This document shows positions 1 to 20,000 of a DNA stretch of 20,000 nucleotides, piece by piece; position 1 is the first letter of the stretch, and every line of letters starts with the position of its first letter. The DNA is from an uncultured virus (IMG/VR IMGVR_UViG_3300020576_006994) (taxonomy: Duplodnaviria; Heunggongvirae; Uroviricota; Caudoviricetes). The notes below the pieces were generated by a model. The model ran no database searches. It had not been told where the DNA came from and worked only from the letters and a program-made list of their open reading frames with translations. The stretch is from the IMG/VR virus record IMGVR_UViG_3300020576_006994; one strand, written 5' to 3'. The position numbers and the translations under genes were made by a program.

Positions 1-968
1 GTTCTTGCCTAACGACCGTTAATGAAATACATCTTGTTCTGGGTCGTAAGATTGATGTGCGTTCCAATTGCCGACACGATGCGCTCAAGCGGGCTAATTG
101 GGTAGCCTTGGCGATTGATGTCGGTTGATGGCGACATTGACATAACAATACACTCATCATCAGTAAATACCTGGTCTGGTCGACCGTTAATTACCTGAGC
201 CCATGTATATTCATCATTTTGGAACTTAGAGATATCAATCTTGTGACCCTGAAGCTGCTCAAGAATGCGCTTAGACTGCACGCGAATATTTTCAGCTTCG
301 CGACTCTCTCCACCTTGTGGAGTTGTGCGAAATACAGTTCCGGCATCCATTGCCCTAAATGAATGGAATTGCTGATTTGAGTCACGACGAAACTCAACGG
401 CAAACTCGCCAAACGTTAGAGCGTCTTCAGCTGTTTCCATTACAAATTGAGCAAGCGTTCTTTTTTCTCGATCTCGGTAGGACTCATTGGTGCCGCAATT
501 AAGCATAAGCTCTCGAACTTGCGGAACCTCTTCCTTTTTTAATTGGTCAATTTCCTGTTCGTTAAGCTCTGCGTGCGCCTCCGGCTTAATATTGACAGAA
601 AAGCCGATGTCGAATCGGTTTGCCCGTGGACGAGCAAATAAGGACAGCTGACGAGCCCTTGTTGGCAAAATAACTCCACCAACTAATTCTTCTGTATTTC
701 TTACCTGCTTAAGGATCTCAGGAGGAATAAGGCTTGTCTTTTTTCTGTAAACAGAGGCAAACTCTTGTGACTTCTATGGATCAGAGTCGATAGAAAGCTT
801 ATTGACCATCGACCGATCTTGGGATTTCTTTAATGACTCGAGAACGCTTCCAAGCAATGATTGATCTTGATCCTGACTAGCGGAAGAGAACATTCGATTG
901 CCGGCACCGAAAGCCTCTATATTCATAATCGAGGAATCCTGTGTAGACGGAGTCTTTTTTGATGACAT
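1..968 (-). CDS. Phage portal protein, N-terminal part (runs off the left edge); 2 in-frame TAG
   Basis: ATG at 968. Track ORFs 774..968 and 9..668 share a frame and are joined across TAG 774-776; TAG 9-11 is also read through. Portal-like motifs: EDALTFGEFAVE, GYPISPLE..VSAI..HIN.T.QNKMYF.NGR*AR. Lies downstream of terminase. Confidence 0.8.
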
Positions 969-2008: not shown

Positions 2009-3844
2009 TTAAATGTCCCAGTAAAAACCGCCTTTTTTCGAGGACTTAGTCACTTTATTGCCACCCAAATCGACGATGGTTTTTTGGATTTCATCTTTAA
2101 GCCAAACGCCCTGTTCATCGCTTGTGTAAGTTTTACCAACAGACGTATCCTGAATGGGCACGGCTGAGACGTGAACCTCGCCTCTAAGCTTCCATCGATT
2201 CTGTGCAACGTAAGAAAGAGCATCGTGACTATCGTCGTAAGTCTTCTAAACTTCTTCCGTTAGTTTTCCATCACTAGATTTTTTGAAATGATATTTTTCA
2301 AAGTTGTCAACAAGAGACTGCGTGTTGCCTTCAAGACCAAAGAGCTTAGTGTCGCCGTAAGGTGGGGACATCTTGTATCGGATGAATGCATGTCCGGCGC
2401 TAACGTCTTTTTTGAAAATAGCTCCGACTCTCACCTATCTGCCGATCATTCCATTGGTAGACGGATCTTCTGGATCGCAGTAAATAATGGTAAAATCATA
2501 AATGTTATGCAAACTCTTAACGAGGTCTACTTTTTGCGGTGGCTCAAGGCCACTGACCTCCACAGACCTCATTACGTAGGCATTGCCTCTGGCATCCTCG
2601 TAGACGATAACGATGGCAGTTGGGTGAGTGTAGCCGTGGTCAAGTCCTGCGTACCGCTTAACTCCTATCTTCTTCATCTGATCAATAAGGACTTGTTCTG
2701 AGATCTACGTTCCTGGATCTTCACCCATGAAGATAGTCAGCATCTCTCTTGGAGTCTTAATGAACTTTGTTCTGTCAAACCTCGGATAAACAAGGTCATC
2801 TGCAGAGGGTTGCATAGACATCGACTGAGACAAAAACCAATCATAATTCGATTGTTTAAAGTTCGATATTGTGGCTTGAATCGGCCTGAGAGCTTTACAT
2901 TTAGAGGTTTGCTTCTTGGCATCGCCTGCGCACACCGCTCTAAGTGGGCACTCAATGCATTTCTCTTTGGCGATAACTCGCTCGTACCTTATTTGCTGTT
3001 CTGGCTCCAAAGCCAAGTAATCGTCTTTAAGGAGCGCTTTATTTTCCTATACCGATACAAACATCTCCAAATCTTGAGTTCCAGATCGACTATCTGGACA
3101 CCTCTGCGTGTTCTCAAACACGGTCCAGAATTTGAATTTGGCTCCAGTTCGCTCTCTTTCATCGTATTCTTTTTCAATTACCGTATGTCGACCTTTTCTT
3201 GACGAAATACCGACTTTAACCCAAGGAAGCCCCTCCTCTGTATAAGAGGGAACTCCGGCAATGTCTGGATAGGCGGCAACCTTGTTGGGAGCAAGGCTTC
3301 CGAGCTCATCAATTGTTACAATTGGTTGGTGAGCCCCTTGAACTGACTAGGCTGTGAGCGCAAGCACTTCAATGCTTGATTCTTTTCCATTTACGCTCAA
3401 GTTCGTAATGGACATCTTAGGCTCTTCTTTAAGATGCTCTGCTATATACGGCCTAGAGACGAACTTCTTAAAGTACACGTACTATCGATTTGCCTGATCC
3501 TCGGTTCCGCCGAAGTGAACAACGCCACGGCCAAAATGAAGCGGCATTAGGATTTGAATAACAGCACAGGAAAGTGTTTTTTGCGAAGATCGGCCTGCGA
3601 TATAAAAATGAGATTCAGGCTCGTCCTGGTTTGTCTACCTTAAGCAAAAATCATAAACTTCCCACACCATATCCAGTGGATTTGACGTAGAAAATCTAGA
3701 CACAGTACAGTCCTAAAGGTCCACCTCTAGAAATGTCTTGCACCACTGTCGAAGATGCTATTTATTCTTAAGCCTCTGAAGAAGCAATCGACGCATTATC
3801 TCGTCTTTGTTGCCCTCGAGAAGCATATCTTGATTATTGCTCAT
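2009..3844 (-). CDS. terL: Terminase large subunit (611 aa); 9 in-frame TAG
   Basis: ATG 3844 to TAA 2009-2011 with no internal TAA/TGA. Walker A-like YIAGRSSQKT, Walker B-like IVTIDEL, nuclease motifs YAGLDHGYTHP, IYCDP and DDSHDALSY. Upstream of portal. Confidence 0.88.
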
Positions 3845-4439: not shown

Positions 4440-4815
4440 AGATAACCTTGACCGACTAATCCTTCCACAGAAGGTTTCTTGACCACTGAACTAACAAATC
4501 CTTGGCTTTTTGCTTTGCATCCTACCGCTTCCACGGCGGCATATCAATTAGGGCTTGGATGTAGTTAGTCTTTACAATTCCAGTTCCTGACTTGAACCGA
4601 AACCTGTCTTTTGTCATTATCTTAAAGATGACCGTTTTTTGGTCAGGAATAACCTCAGCAACGCCGCCGAGTGAGTACTCGGAACAAGCTACGGTATAGC
4701 ACTTAAGCTGATGAGCTATAGAGTCATGCAGCATTCCATATTGGAGAAGCAATAGCTTACCTAAAAGGAGCTGATCGCTTAAGACGTCTTCATTGCCTCT
4801 TGAAGGGTTTTCCAC
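4411..4815 (-). CDS. Hypothetical protein (134 aa); 2 in-frame TAG
   Basis: Track ORF 4522..4815 extended through two TAGs (WKR*DAK, LWKD*SVKV) to TGA 4411-4413. Confidence 0.65.
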
Positions 4816-5762
4816 ACTGCCTCTTTATCTTCTAGCTGCTAGACTTCGTATACATATTCTTTTATAGCCTAATCCAGCCCACCAATGGCTTCGATATCGA
4901 TAGATTTTGAAGAAAATTCAAAATTTTCCTTAAACTGAAAAGTTACTCCAGAAATTCCTGAATAAGCCAACTCGACCTAAGCCCTCTGACTCTTTGTTCC
5001 TGTAAACTTTACAATCAATCGATCACCAGGCTTCATGCCTGGCGGTATAACTGGATCAGATTCTGGATTGGCATCCACTGACCAAAAGCACTTAACGAAG
5101 GGTGAAGTGCTAACTGAATTAATTACCATCATCTCTTTTGTATCGAAAACGAATAATCTTTTGTCGTGATTCTATTCAGACGAAATGAGCTGCCTGGGTG
5201 TACCTGGATACCAGATCTTATCCTAAATAGTCTACTGAGTGTGGATGTGCCCAGAGATTATTTTTTCGTACTTTATTCCAGAAAAATCAAACCCGTCTGG
5301 AGCATAAAACCCATTCTCAAACTTAGCGCCATCGAAGGTTTGATGGCAAAAGAGAATCTTACCTGACTTAAGCTTTGATAAAAACTGGTCTTCGTCTTTA
5401 TGAAAAGAAAGGGCATGGACTCCGTCTTCAATCTCAAAAAGCGAATTTGGGTTAATCACTGTTAGGTTTTTAATGCCATACAGGGCTTGATCTACCTAAT
5501 TAACAAACTAATTAGATGGAGAAATGCCGTCGTGGTTCCCAACCAAGACATAGACCGGAAGCTGCGCCTAAAGCTAGGACATGTTCTCCTGAACAACAGA
5601 CAAGACCTCTTGTCGAACTACCTAATGTGTATGGAACAGGTCACCAAGAAACAAAATCTAGTCGGCCCCATGCTAGATCTTAGCTGCTTCACTAAAAATG
5701 GCTTTGGTGTCTTGAATATTGTTGACCTGAGCATGCAGGTCTCCGACTATCTAGATTTTCAT
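4779..5762 (-). CDS. sbcD: SbcD/Mre11-like metallophosphoesterase nuclease (327 aa); 14 in-frame TAG
   Basis: ATG 5762 (ATGA overlap with upstream stop) to TAA 4779-4781. All five calcineurin-like motifs present: MKI*IVGDLH, D*ILFLGDLFH, LVGNHD, FCHQ, SGHIH, plus WYPGTP. Confidence 0.82.
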
Positions 5763-6052
5763 CCCTCAGATGATACCATTACTAGTGCCTGCTTTGGAAC
5801 CAGTATGAACTTTTTACCGTCATCTTCGTAAATTTTACGTGCGTGAGCTGTGCCATCAAGCTCCGCCAGAACGAAAGCTACATCACCCTATTTATAATCT
5901 TCAGAGTCAAACACAATCTTAGTTTTAACTAGATCGTTACGGAGTCGATCTGTTGTCTAGAACCGAGAAGTGGTCGCCTCGGGTTTTACCTTGTGCTCCA
6001 AAACTAGTGGCTCTAAAGCCACCAGTCCATTAAGCGTCTTTGTAGATTTCAT
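5759..6052 (-). CDS. GroES/Cpn10-like co-chaperonin candidate (97 aa); 2 in-frame TAG
   Basis: ATG 6052 with AAAGGAGA RBS to TGA 5759-5761. GroES-sized, with a matching pattern: KTLNGLVALEP (cf. RPLHDRVIVK), YK*GDVAFV (cf. VKVGDIVIF), DGKKFILVPKQALVMV (cf. DGEEYLIMRESDILAV). Confidence 0.55.
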
Positions 6053-7088
6053 ATGAAAGCTCTCCTTTTAAAAGCAAAATCTTTCTCTGCAGGAGGCTAA
6101 GCTCCCTCTATGCATTTAATATCTTATTCCTAATGTCGGATTCAATTGCCAAGTCTTCAGGCGAAGCTGCTCGATACTAAATATCAGGCTCTAAATCTTC
6201 ATCTGAAATATGCTCATGCCGCAACGAATCTGATCCAGCACCGTAAAAAGCCCGCTCGTCAAGCGACTTATACGCTCCGGGATTTCTGATCTTAGTTACA
6301 ACCTCAAAAAACGCTTCATCAGTAAGATCAAGCTATTCTTGAAGCTGTTCATCTGTCTATTCTGGATTTTCTTCGAGAAACCTTACGGCCTGAAAAGCCT
6401 TGTCTGAAACCTTAGAGCTGTACGTCAGGTGACTAGATGCTTCGTGGTAGTATTCCTGAAGGTACTTGTTCATCCACCCGTTTGCCATAGAGATGAACGC
6501 GTCTTTTTTCTATTGATCAGGAACGTACTTATCGACAGCACTGAACAGCCCAAGGTTGGCCGTCTATACAAAATCTTCCATAGAGGCTCTAGCTCCTAGC
6601 TATGGATTCTTTTTTACCATGGAGTAAAATACCTTCTATCTGTGCATAGCCAAATATAGAGATGCCGAAACGATTTCCTGCCTCTTGCTGGAGATATCAG
6701 CAAGAATCTGAGCAAGCTCTGACTTGTTTGATGAATCTACAACTCTTGACATCTAGAACTTACAGAAGTTAAAGTTTACTGGAGCCTTATATAGCTCTTT
6801 TGAGTTCATTCTTTGAATGTTTTTTGAAACAGGTCCAAACTTTTCGTCTCGTATCCTGAAAAAGATGCTTGATTTACCCTGATAGTCTTTGTCTTGATTT
6901 ACTGTTCTGCAAAAAGTATCATAGATCTACTTCCCAGCCAAACTCTTCCGAAGAGTTTTCTAGAAGAGATCTTCTAGTTTCATCAAGTCCTTAAACATCT
7001 TGAGCATCTTAGTTGAATCAATTGGCGCAGACCCAATCTCGCTCTTAAGCTCATTTGCGTATGAATGCAAAAGGTCTTTCTCGCTCAC
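6030..7088 (-). CDS. Sigma-70-family RNA polymerase sigma factor-like protein (352 aa); 11 in-frame TAG
   Basis: GTG 7088 (GTGA overlap with helicase stop) to TAA 6030-6032. Region 2-like LYLAMHR*KVFY...MEDFV*TANLGLFSAVDKY...FISMANGWM; region 3-like PE*TDEQLQE*LDL and YKSLD; SPEDLAIESD...LSLLQRKILLLKG. Absent from the standard-code ORF track. Confidence 0.72.
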
Positions 7089-8539
7089 TGAACCCCCATC
7101 TTAGACGAATGCACGTGCTGCACCGGCCCTACCTACTGGTAGTATTTAGCTCGCTCATCTGCATGTCTCTTTAAGAGCGGTACATTTGTGACCCTAAAAT
7201 CAACTATCTTACAAGAAGTCTTGCCGGTCTCTTTGTGAACCCTAGTACTTCTTCCAATTGCACCCTGCTTAACCTTTGTTCCGGCCTTATTTGCCTGCCA
7301 GTTTATCGTAAGACGAACTGGTAGGAAATTCGTTCCAGTGCTTACAGCACTCGTGCCCACAACGCATAGAATTTTGCCTTGATTGAAATCATCGCATATA
7401 GAAGTAACATCAGAGTCGCCACAGGCATAAGCATACTCAACCTGAAGGCGTTTTTTAAGGAGCTCTTCTTGACCATGTTCATCTACCAGCACCAAGACTG
7501 GCATTCCTTTTTTTACCTATTGATTAACCATCTGCGAAATAATCTTCGCAATTCCATCATTTTTGTAAAAATGCTCTTGGTTCATCTTTACAACGTTATC
7601 TTTATTCTAGTACTTTGACTTAGATTCAATGTCAATAACCATCGTATCAATCTTTGCCAGATACCCCTCAGCTTGCGCTTGCTGTATAGAATATTCAAAA
7701 ACCTGTTTTCCAATGATCGCCTCAAGCATCAAGTCCCGTCCGTCGTTTCGCTCTTGAGTTGCCGAAACAAACCATCGATACGGACAATGAGCTAAAAGAC
7801 CATGGCAAACCTTCTCAAGCATCTACTAGGGAAGAGAATGACTCTCGTCGGCAATAAATACATCGTATTGCTTAAATTCCTCTGTAGCCTCTCCCTCAAC
7901 TAAAGACAGGCTCTTTCCAACTGAAATCAAAAACTGCTTGCCAACTTGCTTCTTGCCGGCCCCGAACATGCCAACGCGCTCTTTTCCAAGAAGATGACAT
8001 GCATCATTATAGATCTGCTCGGCAATGGACTTTGAAGGTGTACAAACCACACAACGAAGTCCGGTCTTTTTAAGTAGACTAATAATTACATTAGTTTTTC
8101 CAGCTCCGGTTGCAATCTCGACGTGGGAATGTCGATTCTAGAGAAGTGCATCAAGTGCCTACTGCTGGTAGGGCCTTAAAGAAAACTCCGGAATATTCTT
8201 CCATGGAATCAACTTGAACTCAGGGGCAGCAACTTCATCGATAACGCTAGAAATAAGATTGTGGCGCCTAAGAAGATCAGCCATGCCCTAATAAGTCCAG
8301 AATCCATTTTCATCCTCCATCAAAAGAGTCTTCTTGGATTCAGCGGTCAACCTATCAATCTCTTTCTAAACCCACTCTTCGCCGAACCTCATAGTGTAAT
8401 ACGGATTCTTCTTCAAGCCTTTTAGTTGGTGAAGAACCGATTTGTCCTGATAGGTCAGGAGGCGTCTGAGGCTTGCCAGCTCTGCTTCCGATACTTCCTC
8501 GAGCTTGATCTTTGTTGGTTCTACCAGTCGCTATTCCAA
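7085..8539 (-). CDS. SF2 (UvsW/XPB-like) DNA helicase (484 aa); 10 in-frame TAG including a tandem TAGTAG
   Basis: TTG 8539 (GGGAAG RBS) to TGA 7085-7087. Q-motif LRPYQQ, Walker A IATGAGKT, Ia VCTPS, II IADESH, III VSAT, V VSTGTN, VI QGAIGRSTR. Confidence 0.88.
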
Positions 8540-9945
8540 TTCACTTCCCAATTAATTCTAGGTGCGGGTTTAGTCTGCACTCTATTAGTTAATAGCGCAA
8601 AATTACTAGTGAAGTTACTTGCTTGTGAATATTGCATATGGAATAGCTTAGTCAGTAATTCAACCTTCCTTGCAGAGTGCTTATCATTTCTCCATGCATT
8701 CCAGTCTCCAGACGCCCATGCCTACTTTGCCTAGTTCTTTTTGTAATCCTTACGCTTAATCTCGCCTTCGTAGATTCCCACTCTTTCGCTAAGATATCTT
8801 CCACAATCAGTCTGGAGCTAAATCCTGTCACGATTCCACTAATCCTACTTGAAATATCGCATCTCAATGTTATTGAGCTCCAGCTAGTCTCTTGTGTAAT
8901 CAACGTCTTTCTACACACACACTCTAACCTGGAAAGTTTTACAACGAATTCCCGGACAGAAAGTTCCGTCAATCACGCGCATCCATCCAACTTTAATCTA
9001 CTAGCGCCGCAAAACACTGTATCCGTTTCCAAATACACGTTTTTCTGCCTACTACGATATCTCGATTCCTCGATCAACCCTCTTTTGCAGAACACCAAGC
9101 AGGGCCAAATACCTAACAAACGCCTGACAGGACTTTTCTGAAACTCTGTGCTGCTTCAAATACTCTTCCTAAGCCTAGTCGCCGTATTGCCCCTTCTTTA
9201 AAAGCTAGTCCCATGCCTACTCTTTCTATCCCTTAAAAAGCTTCTACCCCTATTTCTTGAAATCATCTTCCGTTTTAAACCAACGAAGTGAATTCGCTCC
9301 ACTCTATTGATCAAACACCTCTTTATCTGTAAAATCTCTACACCCAACAAGCTAGTCATGCTGATTGAGGACTCCCTTTCCAGGTTTCTGCTCAGGAAAA
9401 TAGAGAAGCTTCTATAAAATCTTCTTACTCTTTTGAAAATTACGCATCTCTTCATGAAACTTATTCATGAAAGGCTTACATTCTTTAGTCAGCATCTATT
9501 TTGGAAGCCCTGACTTACTTAAATTAAAACCTCTTTTTCTCTAAATAAAAACAACACCTTGAATCATCAACGACATTCGAACTGAATCCAATTCAAACCC
9601 ATATTGATCACTAAGGACCATATACATGGATCTATCAAACCCATTTCGTTTCATTGTTCTGTAAACTTCACCAATGAAGAAGTACGAGATGTTCCATGCA
9701 TTCTTTGGATTACACCATTTTACTGGTTTCTCAGTGATCTATTTGTAAAATCGATTCTAAACATTCAATTCAATGCTTGAGTAAAGCCTTTTCAATGAAT
9801 CTTTATCTTTAGAGCCCTAACTAGTCTCACCTACCTGAACTTTACCAGCCCTTGCAACGTCATTCATTGCATCTGTTATATCCAACAGGCTGAGACCCTG
9901 TGTGCCTGTGCTTCCCGTGGTAGAGGTTGGTACATTCTTGTTCAT
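8455..9945 (-). CDS. Large hypothetical protein (about 496 aa; 474 aa if it ends at TAG 8521-8523), possibly DNA-binding; 27 in-frame TAG
   Basis: ATG 9945; one frame free of TAA/TGA until TGA 8455-8457, filling an otherwise empty 1.4 kb gap. Segment LRR**IKVGWMRVIDGTFCPGIRCKTFQV resembles a winged-helix wing. Function not assignable. Confidence 0.7.
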
Positions 9946-10066: not shown

Positions 10067-11866
10067 ATGTACATTAAGGAACATCAAAAGTCAAAAACAG
10101 CAGCAAAAACAATCACTTCAGATCCACGAGCTTTAAAAAGAGCAGTACTCAGTACGCTTAAAGAAGCGTCAAATCTAGTTGGTTCAACACTTGGACCCAA
10201 TGGAAAGATTGTATTAATCGAAAGACAAGAGAATTTGCCGCCATTCCTTACAAAGGATGGCATCACTGTATTCAATTCAATGACCTTTGCTGATCCTACA
10301 AAGCAATAGATCCTTGAATAGGCTCGGGATGCAAGCTCAAAAACCAATGTAGACGCAGGGGATAATACGACCTCGTAGACAATCCTTGCAGAGGCTCTGG
10401 TTCGACTTGGTTTTGATTATCTTGAAAAGAACCCACGGGAATCAACTCAGGTTGTAATGCGGTCTCTGGAATAGGCATATCGGGACGTAGTTATTCCGTT
10501 CATCAAAGAAAATGCAAAGAAGATCACCCTTCAAAACTCTGATGACTTTCTTAAAAAAGTTGCAATGGTTGCAACAAATCACGATGAAGCCATGTCGGAC
10601 GCAGTCATCGAGGGGTTTAATATCGTAGGCCATGGTGGAAACTTTACAATCCTTGAACAACCAGGAGTTGATGGATTTGAGGTTGAGCAGATCGAGGGGT
10701 TTCCCATTGCTCGAGGTTTTGAGGATACCTGCGGTCGATTTATTGAGCAGTTCATTAATGATCGAGCCAATTACCGCACGGTACTCGAGAAGCCTAAGTT
10801 TTTGATCTACAACGGCAAGCTTAACGACATGAATCCACTCATGCCTATCCTTGAGAAGGTGGCTAACGCCTCGGCTCCAAAAGAGCAGGGTGGTATTGGT
10901 TTTAGTGAAAACTTGATTATTGTTGCTCACCACTTCTCAGAGAATGTCCTGGCAACCCTGGCCAATAACTTTGTTCAGCCAGGAACGATCAAGGCGATCC
11001 CCCTAAAAGCGCCCATTACGTCACAGGCGAACAGCCACTATCATTTCCTTGTGGACCTGTCGCATTTCGTTGGCGCAAAGGTTTTTGATCCGCTTTCGGC
11101 TCCACTTGAGAGTGCCACACTTGGCCATCTTGGCCTTGATTCAATGCAATCCTTCGAATACATGCGATATCGCTCTACAATCATCGGAAAACCTGATGAA
11201 ATGCTTGTATTGGCTCGAGCTGAAGAGCTTTATAAGCAAAAAGCGGTTGCCGAGTCTATTTTGGACGCAGAATTGACCGCAGAGCGATGCGCAGTGTTAA
11301 CTGGTGGAATCGCTAAACTCAAGATCTTTGGCTCAAGCGAGGCTGAGCTTAAGGAGAAGAAACATCGGGTAGAAGACGCCGTAATGGCCATTAAAGGGGC
11401 CATCAAGGACGGGGTGCTCCCTGGCGGATAGAAGACGCTGCTGATGCTGTCAAAGCTGATCCTGAGCGATTCTAGCTTGCACCCATAGGTTCGTTCCATT
11501 ATGGGACGGGCGTTCCTGACCCCGTTCTGGCGGCTATTTGAGAACGCACGTATTCCAGAAGAGGAAATCCTTGACATTAAGCGAAATGTAATGGACGGAG
11601 ATTTCTATAAGACCTATAACGCCCTCACTCATGTCTATGGCGATGCCGTTGAACTTGGAGTTCTTGATTCGGCCCAGGCCGTAAATATGTCGATCAAGAA
11701 TAGCCTCTAGGTTTCAAAAATGCTAATTCAGCTTTCTGGCATCGTTGTGTTTAAGCGTGATGGCGATCTTGATAGAAATGAAGCCAATTCGATCTATGCC
11801 GAAAACCAGGCAATGAGTGATGCGATTGAGCAGTCTAATCGTGAACAATGGGAGCCGCCGTCATGA
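10067..11866 (+). CDS. groEL: Phage GroEL/Cpn60-like chaperonin (599 aa); 7 in-frame TAG
   Basis: Track ORFs 10067..10309, 10565..11431 and 11501..11710 share one frame and end at TGA 11864-11866. Motifs STLGPNG, TKDGITV, AGDNTTS*TIL, ELKEKKHRVEDA, GVLPGG, GVLDS. Confidence 0.93.
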
Positions 11867-12153
11867 TCGTACTTTTTAAATGCGTACTGTGTAAAAATGA
11901 CATCAAGAAGCTTTACCAGAAAAACCAGGAGCGCCCGCCGTTCTTAAACTGTGCTTGTGGTGGAATCATGGAGGCACAGCTTCCGGACTTCGAAACCTCT
12001 TCTTATGAGGTTGTTGATAACGGAAATCAGGCAAAAAAAGTCCTTTTGCGGAAGGATTAGGTTGCCAAGGGTAAGCAAAAGGGAGATCTTTACAAAGATC
12101 TTGTGGAAACCCGTGATGGTGTGGTAAAACGAACTGATGATGGTAAAGCTTAA
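11863..12153 (+). CDS. Small zinc-ribbon protein (96 aa); 1 in-frame TAG
   Basis: ATG 11863 (ATGA overlap with groEL stop) to TAA 12151-12153; CVLC...CACGG. Confidence 0.7.
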
Positions 12154-14257
12154 TTACGCCAAAATTTCAGGATTTATGGACATCGGGACCGATAGTGGTC
12201 CCGTTTTTTTTAAGCCGTGTGCGTATGGGGTGTTCGGTCAGAATCTTGACTAGGGCGGCTCAAACGCATCCGGCAAAACATCGTTCGTTACGGCCATAAC
12301 GTAGGGCCTAGCAGGCCTTGAGCCGCTAGGACTGTCAATAAAAGACGTAAAAAATAGAAATTTAGACGTTCCGTGCGTAGTCGAGCTTGGACTTGATGTG
12401 TCCGGAAAAGAAGTCATCATAGCTAGAAGTTTTGGCAAGGGTGTATCGCTTGTGGTTGACGGCGTAGCCATTGACGGGAAGCAGGATGTAATTAAACAGC
12501 GCATCCTTGAGACCTTGGGGGTAACGGCTGAGCAGGCCGTGATGCTCACACACAAACGTCAAGGGCACCTAGACAATTTTTTGACAATGAAAGATTCCGA
12601 CAAGAAGGAGTTTCTGTCGAAAATCCTTGATCTTGATCGAGTAGACTTATAGAAAGAGCAGGTTCAGGCCAAGTCAAAGCAGATTGAGCTAGCCTTAAAA
12701 CAGGCTAGCGACGCAGAGATTAAGACCTGTTAGGCGCTAGAAGCGATCAGCGACAGCCTGTCCTCGGCAGAGCAGCAGCTTGAAAGCTTAAGTCGAATTC
12801 ATGATGAGGCTAAGAGCCTGGGCACTGAGCAAGTAAGGAGCTTAGAGGCAGCCCTTGCGCTTTTGCCCCAAATTGCGGAAGTTGATGTAGGAGTGATCCG
12901 GGCGATTATCGAAAAAATTGAAAATGAGAGAACGAGACTGTAGGCCGCTAATGAGCTAGCATAGGCAGAAAAAGAAGAGATTGAGCGTCTGTCTTAGCAG
13001 CTATCAAGTAAGCCATAGGAGCCTGAAGAAATTGAACGGTAGATCTCTGAGGCAGAATCTTCATTAAAAAAAGCCCAGCTTGGAGTAAGGGCGAAAGCTG
13101 AGATTCAAAGGCTTATTTCGATCAAAAAGCACGAGATCTAGTCATTTACGGTGCCACCTGAGCACTCAGACGAAAACTGCACGTCCTGTGGACAGACTAT
13201 GCCAGAAGATGTGCTCTCTAAGTCTAGAGAGCGTCATCGATTAGCAATTGAAAAGGCAAATGAAGGCTTGGCAAAAAAAGAGTCCGAGCTGCAGAAGCTT
13301 ACTGCTGACTTTGACAAGATAACAGCAATTGACGTAGACGGAGCACTGGCTTAGTCGCAAGAACAGCTGGTTTTGGCAAAGCAGTAGAGAGTGAAGTGGC
13401 AAGAAAGCGTATCTACCTAGACAGTTGAAGCGAGTCTTGCGGAAGCAAAAAAGAAGGCGGCTAAAACTAAGGCAGAGATAGAGACCATATATTCACTGAT
13501 TTCGTCACTAGACAGAGAAATAAAGTCCATACAGGATTCAGCAAGTAGGGCACTGGCCGATCAAAGAAAGTCAATATCGGATCAGATCAAGACTAATCTT
13601 CAGGCAATTGATAGGGCGGCTGCAGAATTAAAGCGGCACTCTGATCTTTACGAAAAAGACAAAGAAAGGGTTCTTGCAAAGCAGCTAGAATTAGATCTTT
13701 AGAGAAAAGAAAGAGAAAACAAAGAAAAAGAATTTAGTGTTATTGAGCAGACCCTAAAGGTTCTGTCTAACTCTGGTTTTGTTGGATACGTTTTTGAGCA
13801 GGTACTGAACGACTTCAATAACTTTTCGAACGAATTCCTTTCAAAGACAGATTTAATGCGTGACGTATATCTAGAATTCAGCTCAGATAAGGTCGTAAAA
13901 TCTACAGGGTAGAACGTTAAATCAATTCAGTCAAAGATAATGCAAAAAGGGCAAGAAACTTCATTTGATACGCTTTCTGGAGCAGAAAAATTAACCGTTC
14001 TTAGCTAGGTGGACTACGCCATTGAGCGAATCATTAAGCAACGTCAAGGGGTTAGCTTCTCGTGGAAAATCCTAGACGAGTCGTTTATGTGGGTAGACTC
14101 AACAAACAAAGAGCAGGTCCTGCAAGAGGTTCTGTGTGATTCAGAGAAGACCTACCTACTTGTAGACCATGCATCCGAATTTAATTCTGCGCTACAAAAT
14201 AAGATAGTTATTGAAAAATCTAATGGCATTGCAAAGGTGTAGTTGATTGAGCACTAA
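12137..14257 (+). CDS. sbcC: SbcC/Rad50 (gp46-like) SMC-type ATPase (706 aa); 17 in-frame TAG
   Basis: ATG 12137 to TAA 14255-14257 without internal TAA/TGA. Walker A GSNASGKT, Q-loop RQG, long coiled coils with central Zn-hook CTSCGQ, signature LSGAEK, Walker B KILDES, H-loop VDH. Confidence 0.88.
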
Positions 14258-19239: not shown

Positions 19240-19451
19240 TGAACAAGGCCTAGGTGGAAAAGTTTTTCGTTAATTCAAAAAAGCATCGAGACAGCATAAG
19301 TCTTGCTTCAGACGAATAGCCAGTCAATGAAAAAACAATTTAGACGATGCTTGGGATAACTCCAGAAGAAGTCGGGAAACTTTACAATCAGGCTTTGAAA
19401 GTCATGAAAAATGCACTATCATCGGAGACAGATGAAGAAGATTACCGATAA
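19239..19451 (+). CDS. Small sigma-70 region 4-like HTH protein (70 aa); 3 in-frame TAG
   Basis: ATG 19239 to TAA 19449-19451; NEKTI*TMLGITPEEVGKLYNQALKVMK parallels the region 4.2 pattern TLEEIAxxLGISRERVRQIxxxALxKLR. Confidence 0.6.
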
Positions 19452-20000
19452 GACTATTTTTGGAGTCCATAACCATCCACTGTCGCTTGATAGTGGAAAC
19501 ACCGTAAAACACTTCTTGACGTCCGCAGCTAAAGATTTTGGCCGGACGTCAATTGCTATTACAGACCATGGACAGCTTGGCGCCATTATCGAAGCAGATT
19601 AGGTCGCAAAAGACTTAAAGAAGAAGGGCATTGATCTAACTATCGTCCCAGGCATCGAGCTATACCTGATTCCTGACGACAAAGAGGATGTCTGGGAGCT
19701 AGATAAAAAGGGAAACAAGAAGTTCCAATACTATCACGTCACTGTTCATTTCGAGGATTTCGAGGCTTACCTAGATGGGTGTAAGCTTTCTCGAGCTGCG
19801 TTTGATCGAGCAAAGTGGAAGGGCGGTGAACTTAAGCCGATGACCACATGGAGCGAGCTTGAGTCACTCAGCGGAAAGGTCACATTAACTAGCTCCTGCT
19901 TGGTCGGATAGGTCTTAAAGCCGTTCTTAATTGGAAAAAAAGAGCAAAGCGAGTACAACTTTCTTCGCCTAAAAGCTATTTAGGGTCCAGGCCGTTTCTT
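19432..20000 (+). CDS. dnaE: DNA polymerase III alpha-like PHP domain, N-terminal part (runs off the right edge); 3 in-frame TAG
   Basis: ATG 19432 with GGAG RBS; HNH..SLD, SIAITDHG, IVPGIELY, YYHVTV, LTSSCLVG; frame open to the window end when TAG is read through. Confidence 0.78.

Follow-up and report, generated by a model that had tools for sequence, protein, structure and literature searches.

In this study we analyzed the meaning of the codon TAG in a 20,000-nucleotide stretch of DNA (here referred to as the window, that is, the whole stretch at its full length) from an uncultured virus of the class Caudoviricetes (IMG/VR record IMGVR_UViG_3300020576_006994). Comparison with related phages indicates that TAG, by default a stop codon, is very probably a fully established alanine sense codon in this phage, whose genome is estimated at about 160 kb. 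The novelty lies in the amino acid, since this is a phage stop-codon recoding that differs from the known ones and for which precedent was found only in the mitochondria of some green algae.

The genes of this phage fragment fall into two divergent blocks, with products assigned by Pfam and PHROGs. The minus-strand block encodes a portal protein, an unnamed protein of 322 residues, the large terminase, an SbcD-like nuclease, a sigma-like factor, an SF2 helicase and a family-specific protein of 496 residues, and the plus-strand block encodes a GroEL-type chaperonin, an SbcC-like ATPase, an HNH endonuclease, MazG, an exonuclease and the start of a DnaE-type polymerase. Under the standard code hardly any open frame exists in the window, while 22 long open reading frames (ORFs) appear once TAG is read through. 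The fraction covered by open frames of 200 codons or more is 0.12 under the standard code versus 0.81 with TAG read through, and the relatives reach 0.74–0.99 under the standard code. The 22 ORFs, about 6,500 codons, contain 136 in-frame TAGs (2.09%), which are distributed over 21 of them. Twenty of the ORFs have their end within the window, 14 at TAA, 6 at TGA and none at TAG. Counted with the alanine codons, TAG makes up 136 of 585, roughly as many as each GCN codon contributes.

The default reading of TAG is the only point in favor of treating these codons as real stops, whether in a decayed phage, through an assembly or sequencing artefact, or with low-level readthrough. However, the 136 TAGs lie in 22 long ORFs that have conserved domains and no internal TAA or TGA, and weak readthrough over the 27 TAGs of one ORF would yield essentially no product. 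Two further contigs overlap the window: L001, a 16-kb contig of the same phage obtained by an exact-match scan at the left end of the window, and L010, a 3.4-kb metagenome contig that extends about 650 bases beyond it. All TAG codons in the overlaps are shared, 48 of 48 with L001 and 14 of 14 with L010 (62 in total). Because two independent assemblies agree on every overlapping TAG, these codons are really in the DNA and an assembly artefact is ruled out. Together with the residue-specific signal of the TAG columns described below, the TAG counts and the shared assemblies refute the reading as stops, to which we give practically no chance.

Amino acid assigned to TAG

We used 11 syntenic relatives from IMG/VR (L002 and L018–L027; contigs of 22–159 kb), whose GroEL proteins are 51–62% identical to that of the window. 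All 11 read normally under the standard code, and the GroEL gene of L002 itself terminates at TAG. Compared with L002 alone, alanine is present in 26 of 102 aligned TAG columns, followed by E (11), K (8), T (8), Q (7) and S (7); under a substitution matrix estimated from these alignments, alanine fits best, ahead of serine by 24.6 nats and of glutamine by 31.4 nats. We then considered conserved columns, which were defined as those with at least five relatives and at least 70% of one residue, near-identical relatives being collapsed. Among the 11 relatives, 14 of 19 conserved TAG columns are alanine, and genuine GCN codons give 55 of 76; here alanine is ahead of serine by 24–31 nats and of glutamine by 35–41 nats. 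Over all tests, alanine leads serine by 24–31 nats and glutamine by 31–41 nats. A leave-one-codon-out control returned the correct amino acid for 59 of 61 sense codons, and the two misses, ATG and TGG, encode amino acids without another codon and are unrecoverable by design. In this control TAG is assigned to alanine with a margin of 30.6 nats, inside the span of the four real alanine codons (20.7–56.7 nats).

The conserved alanine columns are distributed over many genes. The clearest are in GroEL, where 10 of 11 relatives have A at columns 81 and 85, all 11 have it at column 104, which lies in the motif GD-TT-x-TILAEAL, and 7 of 10 have it at columns 455 and 474. Similarly, A is found at columns 112 and 151 of the sigma-like factor (10 of 11 relatives), 242 and 345 of the helicase (9 of 11), 624 and 172 of SbcC (8 of 10 and 7 of 10), 191 of DnaE (6 of 6), and 44 and 121 of the terminase (8 of 10). 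The assignment of TAG to alanine, already proposed in a preliminary description made from the letters of the window, is strongly supported by the 14 of 19 conserved columns, the margins in nats and the control.

Serine is the runner-up in every test, and a few columns speak for it, or for an ambiguous Ala/Ser reading through a mischarged suppressor: column 548 of GroEL (S in 8 of 10 relatives) and column 47 of SbcD are conserved serine. These few columns can be explained, because TCG is one step from TAG. Serine is behind alanine by the margins given above, and genuine serine codons show alanine in only 6 of 92 conserved columns as against 14 of 19 for TAG. We therefore regard a serine or mixed reading as very unlikely. 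Glutamine deserves attention as the sole amber reassignment that we found reported for phages (genetic code 15; PMC9523058 and the Borges preprint, in the parts available), and column 177 of SbcD and column 175 of the sigma-like factor are Gln in the relatives. Glutamine, however, falls further behind in nats than serine does and accounts for only 1 of the 19 conserved TAG columns, and CAG is one step from TAG, so that a reading as glutamine is extremely unlikely. Pyrrolysine was rejected as well: it is merely the default label of ARAGORN for a CUA anticodon, and the TAG columns are small-residue alanine sites, for example in the nucleotide-pocket motif of GroEL.

Several observations agree less well with alanine, for which all evidence is comparative. 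Of the 9 TAG columns of the terminase, 2 are alanine in the relatives and the other seven are not, and column 4 of SbcD is L or I. The GCN-encoded alanine of the window (6.6–7.3%) already matches the total alanine of the relatives (5.9–7.8%), and with TAG as alanine the window proteins become alanine-rich, at 8.8–9.8%. Because GCN-encoded alanine alone equals the total of the relatives, composition gives no independent support for alanine; amino-acid composition does not discriminate between alanine, serine and glutamine.

Both the non-alanine columns of the terminase and SbcD and the excess of alanine could be accounted for by codon capture, since former nonsense mutations would have become alanine substitutions after it. 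Any GCN codon is at least two changes away from TAG, and the preliminary description had proposed that TAG was captured rather than reached by single-step drift. The data agree with this idea twice. First, in two relatives TAG is used less often than either of the other stops and ends 5 of 105 and 22 of 119 ORFs. Second, the five conserved non-alanine TAG columns are E, E, Q, W and S, and a wider list of such columns contains E, K, L, S and Q; each of these amino acids has a codon that differs from TAG by a single change. Once TAG had been captured, single changes from GAG, AAG, CAG, TCG, TTG, TGG and TAY would be tolerated alanine substitutions instead of nonsense mutations, and their accumulation at sites where alanine is tolerated would have raised the alanine content of the proteome to about 2 points above that of the relatives.

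TAG and alanine-type tRNAs in other phages

To test the predicted tRNA in general form, we scanned IMG/VR for tRNA genes with the anticodon CUA, G1–G3, U70, C71, C72 and A73, a pattern written from universal tRNA features. The strict CUA and G3:U70 pattern gave seven loci, three of them on clearly TAG-recoded records. The recoding signal is weak for L030 and L031, and L034 has a four-base anticodon according to ARAGORN. The amino-acid test was applied to the three clearly recoded records. First, Aeromonas phage AhSzw-1 (MG676225.1; genus Shenzhenvirus) is T5-like and cultured, and was isolated on Aeromonas hydrophila. Compared with Escherichia phage JLBYU43, alanine occupies 79 of 325 TAG columns and is ahead of serine by 70 nats and of glutamine by 82 nats. 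Second, a 28-kb contig of a low-GC HK97-type siphophage (G016) was compared with three reference phages in its terminase, portal and protease, and alanine was found in 32 of 84 aligned residue pairs, with a BLOSUM62 sum at TAG of 97 for alanine versus 15 for serine. Third, a 135-kb record with a T4-type terminase (G015) gave alanine in 19 of 60 pairs and sums of 48 for alanine versus -2 for serine.

In each of these three records the G3:U70 tRNA is the sole tRNA with a CUA anticodon, and it folds into a cloverleaf with G3-U70 and A73. The uniqueness and the alignment of TAG with alanine are both independent of the search pattern. Because none of the three encodes a homologue of the window GroEL, they represent lineages separate from that of the window, and the use of TAG for alanine appears to have arisen several times in phages. 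Altogether it is likely that TAG as alanine is a recurrent and so far unrecognized phage code, which would have arisen in at least four unrelated lineages (the GroEL-encoding window phage of about 160 kb, AhSzw-1, the low-GC HK97-type siphophage contig and the 135-kb record with a T4-type terminase), each via a CUA anticodon on a G3:U70 tRNA and with no new synthetase. No report of TAG as alanine or of a natural tRNA-Ala(CUA) in phages was found in the openly accessible literature. The available part of the Borges preprint does not mention 'alanine', and the available part of PMC7157608, which deals with the tRNAs of AhSzw-1, does not mention 'stop codon', 'suppressor', 'genetic code' or 'amber'.

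The tRNA(CUA) of AhSzw-1 has a normal cloverleaf with G3-U70 and A73 (ARAGORN) and adjoins a tRNA-Ala(UGC). The latter is its nearest tRNA in the same genome, with an identity of 0.68, and several others reach 0.67, so that no donor can be named. The CUA tRNAs at L033:10001-10075 (AhSzw-1), L035:10001-10076 (a 135-kb low-GC record) and L056:1324-1398 (a short metagenome contig) are alike end to end, and this likeness across unrelated phages hints that one suppressor gene may have spread horizontally. In G015, which is classed as a provirus by IMG/VR, the RNA genes are clustered at L050:18483-19172 and consist of a tRNA-Ala(UGC), the tRNA(CUA) and a transfer-messenger RNA with the tag ANEYIPLAA; there are no others in the record. 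As to AhSzw-1, ARAGORN finds 34 tRNAs in the whole record, and the GenBank record has no tRNA feature over the stretch that holds most of the tRNA cluster (L052, MG676225.1 58000-66000). Short coding sequences with unlikely names are annotated there instead, such as 'toll-like protein' and 'major facilitator superfamily transporter', and the record looks as if it had been annotated under the wrong genetic code.

A collection of about 185,000 species genomes also contains seven loci that match the CUA and G3:U70 pattern. A contig (L055) of a metagenome-assembled genome (MAG) labelled Phocaeicola has the tRNA order of AhSzw-1 according to ARAGORN (Arg, His, CUA, Ala-UGC, Pro, Met, Leu and so on), and L058, from the same MAG, has its CUA-tRNA match at the same position as L055, 334-405. 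Both look like contigs of T5-like phages binned into a bacterial MAG. Another three loci (L057, L059 and L060), on contigs of up to 782 kb from Verrucomicrobiota / Chthoniobacteraceae MAGs, share a conserved tRNA-like gene whose acceptor stem is of the G3:U70 type and which has a TTTCTACA loop. ARAGORN reads CUA in one of these loci, gives an odd result in another and misses the third. A chromosomal amber suppressor is one possibility for this gene.

Adaptor, release factor and known systems

The preliminary description had predicted that the phage or its host encodes a tRNA-Ala with a CUA anticodon and G3:U70, and had seen no tRNA in the window. For the lineage of the window this tRNA was not found in the roughly 29 kb that could be scanned, but three other phages whose TAG likewise aligns with alanine have this tRNA and no second one with a CUA anticodon. 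Because these three unrelated phages have exactly that tRNA, the adaptor of the window phage would most likely be an alanine-accepting tRNA with anticodon CUA and G3:U70, charged by the alanyl-tRNA synthetase (AlaRS) of the host. It would be encoded in the approximately 130 kb of the phage genome beyond the sequence seen.

For release factor 1 (RF1), the preliminary description had supposed loss, alteration or antagonism. In L001 (positions 58-2780), upstream of the window, the major head protein (463 aa), a scaffold-like acidic ORF (276 aa) and an ORF of 157 aa are free of TAG, and the neighboring genes carry it. For the major head protein alone, the chance of having no TAG is about 6e-5. The avoidance of TAG in capsid and scaffold genes suggests a residual cost of decoding and, these genes being the most highly expressed, points to an RF1 that still works and competes. 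No gene with an RF-1 domain was found in G001, G012, G014, G015 and G016, five records that include the complete genome of AhSzw-1. As capsid and scaffold genes avoid TAG, and as AhSzw-1 uses an ordinary Aeromonas host without a release-factor gene of its own, loss of RF1 would not be required, and decoding in the window phage probably competes with a working RF1 of the host. Taken as a whole, the explanation that combines an alanine sense codon, a phage-encoded G3:U70 tRNA(CUA), competition with the RF1 of the host and codon capture is in our judgment fairly probable.

Several results stand against a phage-borne adaptor. ARAGORN finds no tRNA in the window, L001 or L010, which together represent about 29 kb of the genome of about 160 kb (L001 is 10% complete according to CheckV), and Rfam at E<=1 gives no tRNA there either, only one chance-level IMES-1 match. 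An exact-match scan from the right end of the window gave nothing, and scans seeded with proteins (GroEL, the DnaE N-terminus, the DnaE alignment and the L001 head protein) gave only standard-code relatives or L001. The records of ten relatives, one of them rated 100% complete, have no tRNA or a single tRNA-Met(CAT). Because the relatives are nearly free of tRNA genes, a phage-borne tRNA in this lineage would have to be a new acquisition. Furthermore, G3:U70, G1:C72, G2:C71 and A73 of the tRNAs of the other phages hold by construction of the search pattern. Finally, the sigma-like factor, the helicase and the nucleases of the window contain TAG; their synthesis before a phage tRNA has built up is hard to explain and fits better with an adaptor supplied by the host. 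As a separate observation, the tRNA-Met(CAT) occurs in 2 of 10 relative records, L028 (G002) and L029 (G011), at different and non-syntenic positions.

We therefore kept a host-supplied adaptor as the main rival, since the making of early TAG-bearing proteins is otherwise left open. In this case TAG is still alanine, and the host has a tRNA-Ala(CUA), or a code in which TAG is sense and RF1 is lost or altered, and the phage matches its host. TAG is found in 21 of 22 window ORFs, likely early genes included, and its use at parity with the GCN codons and throughout early genes may mean that the adaptor is needed from the first minute of infection. In that case the tRNA would be expected to come from the host, to enter with the DNA or to be immediate-early. 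The near absence of tRNA genes in this lineage and its relatives is in line with a host origin, as are the CUA and G3:U70 matches on a few bacterial MAG contigs. However, of those seven loci in about 185,000 species genomes, at least two (L055 and L058), on short contigs, appear to belong to a phage-type tRNA cluster. The three other phages carry their own tRNA, the avoidance of TAG in capsid and scaffold genes is unexpected for a codon native to the host, and no bacterial code with TAG as alanine was found in the literature searched. On balance a host-supplied adaptor seems rather unlikely.

The code has partial parallels in several known systems. Phages of code 15 (crAss-like, Lak and others, with TAG as Gln) likewise turn TAG from stop to sense and keep TAA and TGA as stops, and the three other phages described above carry a suppressor tRNA(CUA), which was not found in the roughly 29 kb scanned for the lineage of the window. 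AhSzw-1 lacks TAG in its pre-early and early genes and is rich in it in its late genes, as in the published model for code-15 phages (10.1101/2021.08.26.457843, in the part available): its A1 DNA-transfer protein, kinase-like protein, DNA polymerase and origin-binding protein have no TAG, and its tail genes have dozens. The tape measure of AhSzw-1 has 66 TAGs, a protein of 1676 residues has 84 and pb4 has 25. This pattern is reversed in the lineage of the window, where TAG is present in the helicase, the sigma-like factor, SbcCD and the polymerase and, unlike in code-15 phages, replication genes contain the codon and capsid and scaffold genes do not. The amino acid is also different, being alanine and not glutamine.

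In the mitochondria of Hydrodictyaceae and Neochloris (Sphaeropleales), UAG encodes alanine, the tRNA(CUA) is of the alanine type, and a mutated mtRF1a (Gln181) no longer reads UAG. As in the present case, the reassignment from stop to alanine was inferred from conserved positions, and codon disappearance or capture was proposed as its origin (PMC6821328, in the part available). Unlike these eukaryotic organelles, we are dealing here with a virus, and the host of AhSzw-1, the sole host known for one of the phages with this code, is an ordinary Aeromonas; unlike in the algae with their altered mtRF1a, no release-factor gene was found in the other phages with this code.

AlaRS accepts a tRNA with G3:U70 whatever its anticodon. 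In classic experiments of 1988, the G3:U70 pair was reportedly transplanted into tRNAs. Artificial systems make the same use of this rule. Laboratory amber suppressors are made alanine-specific by a CUA anticodon combined with G3:U70, and allo-tRNAs with G3:U70 cause efficient amber suppression in E. coli when given a CUA anticodon (PMC5389517, in the part available). Those laboratory suppressors are engineered and serve single codons, whereas the natural phage tRNAs serve hundreds of codons per genome. In the yeast Pachysolen, a natural capture of CUG by an alanine tRNA was likewise made possible by a synthetase blind to the anticodon (PMC4937558 and PMC5951914, in the parts available), although this is a sense-to-sense change in a nuclear genome and not a stop codon in a virus.

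So far stop-codon recoding in phages has been treated as TAG to Gln or TGA to Trp, and this is built into the usual translation of recoded viral genomes. If the present assignment is true, pipelines that use code 15 for all TAG-recoded viruses put glutamine where these phages put alanine, and database entries for their proteins would be broken up or wrongly translated. Nature would then also offer an example in which, through the G3:U70 rule, codon capture needed no additional synthetase. As AhSzw-1 is a cultured carrier on a culturable host, it is directly testable how RF1 is out-competed, why TAG is excluded from some genes and how TAG came to lie at sites of conserved alanine although it differs from any GCN codon by two or more changes.

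Tandem TAG pairs and genes of the window

The plus strand of the window reads CTACTA at three sites, which correspond to TAGTAG on the coding minus strand (Table 1). These three pairs, as well as the dense runs KXGXK and DXAXE, are present as the preliminary description had reported. It had concluded from the pairs that TAG is decoded efficiently. Efficient decoding is a fair inference, because of the density of TAG, for example 27 TAGs in an ORF of 496 residues, and not because of the tandems, which occur at chance frequency and lend it no support. The count of three compares with an expectation of 2.8 from the global TAG frequency or 4.0 from per-gene frequencies, and 3518 of 5000 within-gene shuffles gave at least three tandems. 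The tandems are no special signal, and their number is that of a sense codon at 2.1%.

Table 1. TAG pairs and principal genes of the window, with the number of in-frame TAG codons (X, residue encoded by TAG).
Feature	Position	Strand	Description
Tandem TAG-TAG, helicase codons 242-243	7823..7828	-	DESHSLP-X-X-MLEK, three residues past DESH; in relatives column 242 is A in 9/11 and S in 2/11, column 243 is N/D/E/K
Tandem TAG-TAG, codons 315-316 of ORF 8455-9945	8998..9003	-	RR-X-X-IK; in relatives column 315 is A in 5/7, column 316 is A in 4/7
Tandem TAG-TAG, codons 298-299 of ORF 8455-9945	9049..9054	-	IS-X-X-AEK; in relatives column 298 is A in 4/7, column 299 is A in 3/7
Portal protein, N-terminal part	3..968	-	2 TAG; continues off the window
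Terminase large subunit	2009..3844	-	611 aa, 9 TAG
SbcD-like nuclease	4779..5762	-	327 aa, 14 TAG
Sigma-factor-like protein	6030..7088	-	352 aa, 11 TAG; PHROG 351
SF2 DNA helicase	7085..8551	-	488 aa, 10 TAG; Pfam ResIII, DEAD, Helicase_C; PHROG 16; 45-53% identity to relatives
Family-specific protein of unknown function	8455..9945	-	496 aa, 27 TAG (5.4% of codons); homologues in 7/11 relatives
GroEL-type chaperonin	10067..11866	+	599 aa, 7 TAG; clearest evidence for Ala
SbcC-like ATPase	12137..14257	+	706 aa, 17 TAG
DnaE-type polymerase, PHP domain	19411..19998	+	3 TAG; continues off the window

The product of the ORF at 8455-9945 gave no match in Pfam and PHROGs. It had been called an orphan, a term that does not hold within its family, where the homologues are 21–27% identical to it. 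The helicase ORF, which has a TTG start at 8551, overlaps the end of this ORF by 97 bases; the relatives align with the helicase from residue 11 onward only, and its true start may lie further in.

The base that follows TAG in the window is a purine in 76% of cases, as compared with 63% after all codons, and T is depleted (chi-square about 10). Because this weak bias is absent in the other three phages that read TAG as alanine, we drew no conclusion from it.

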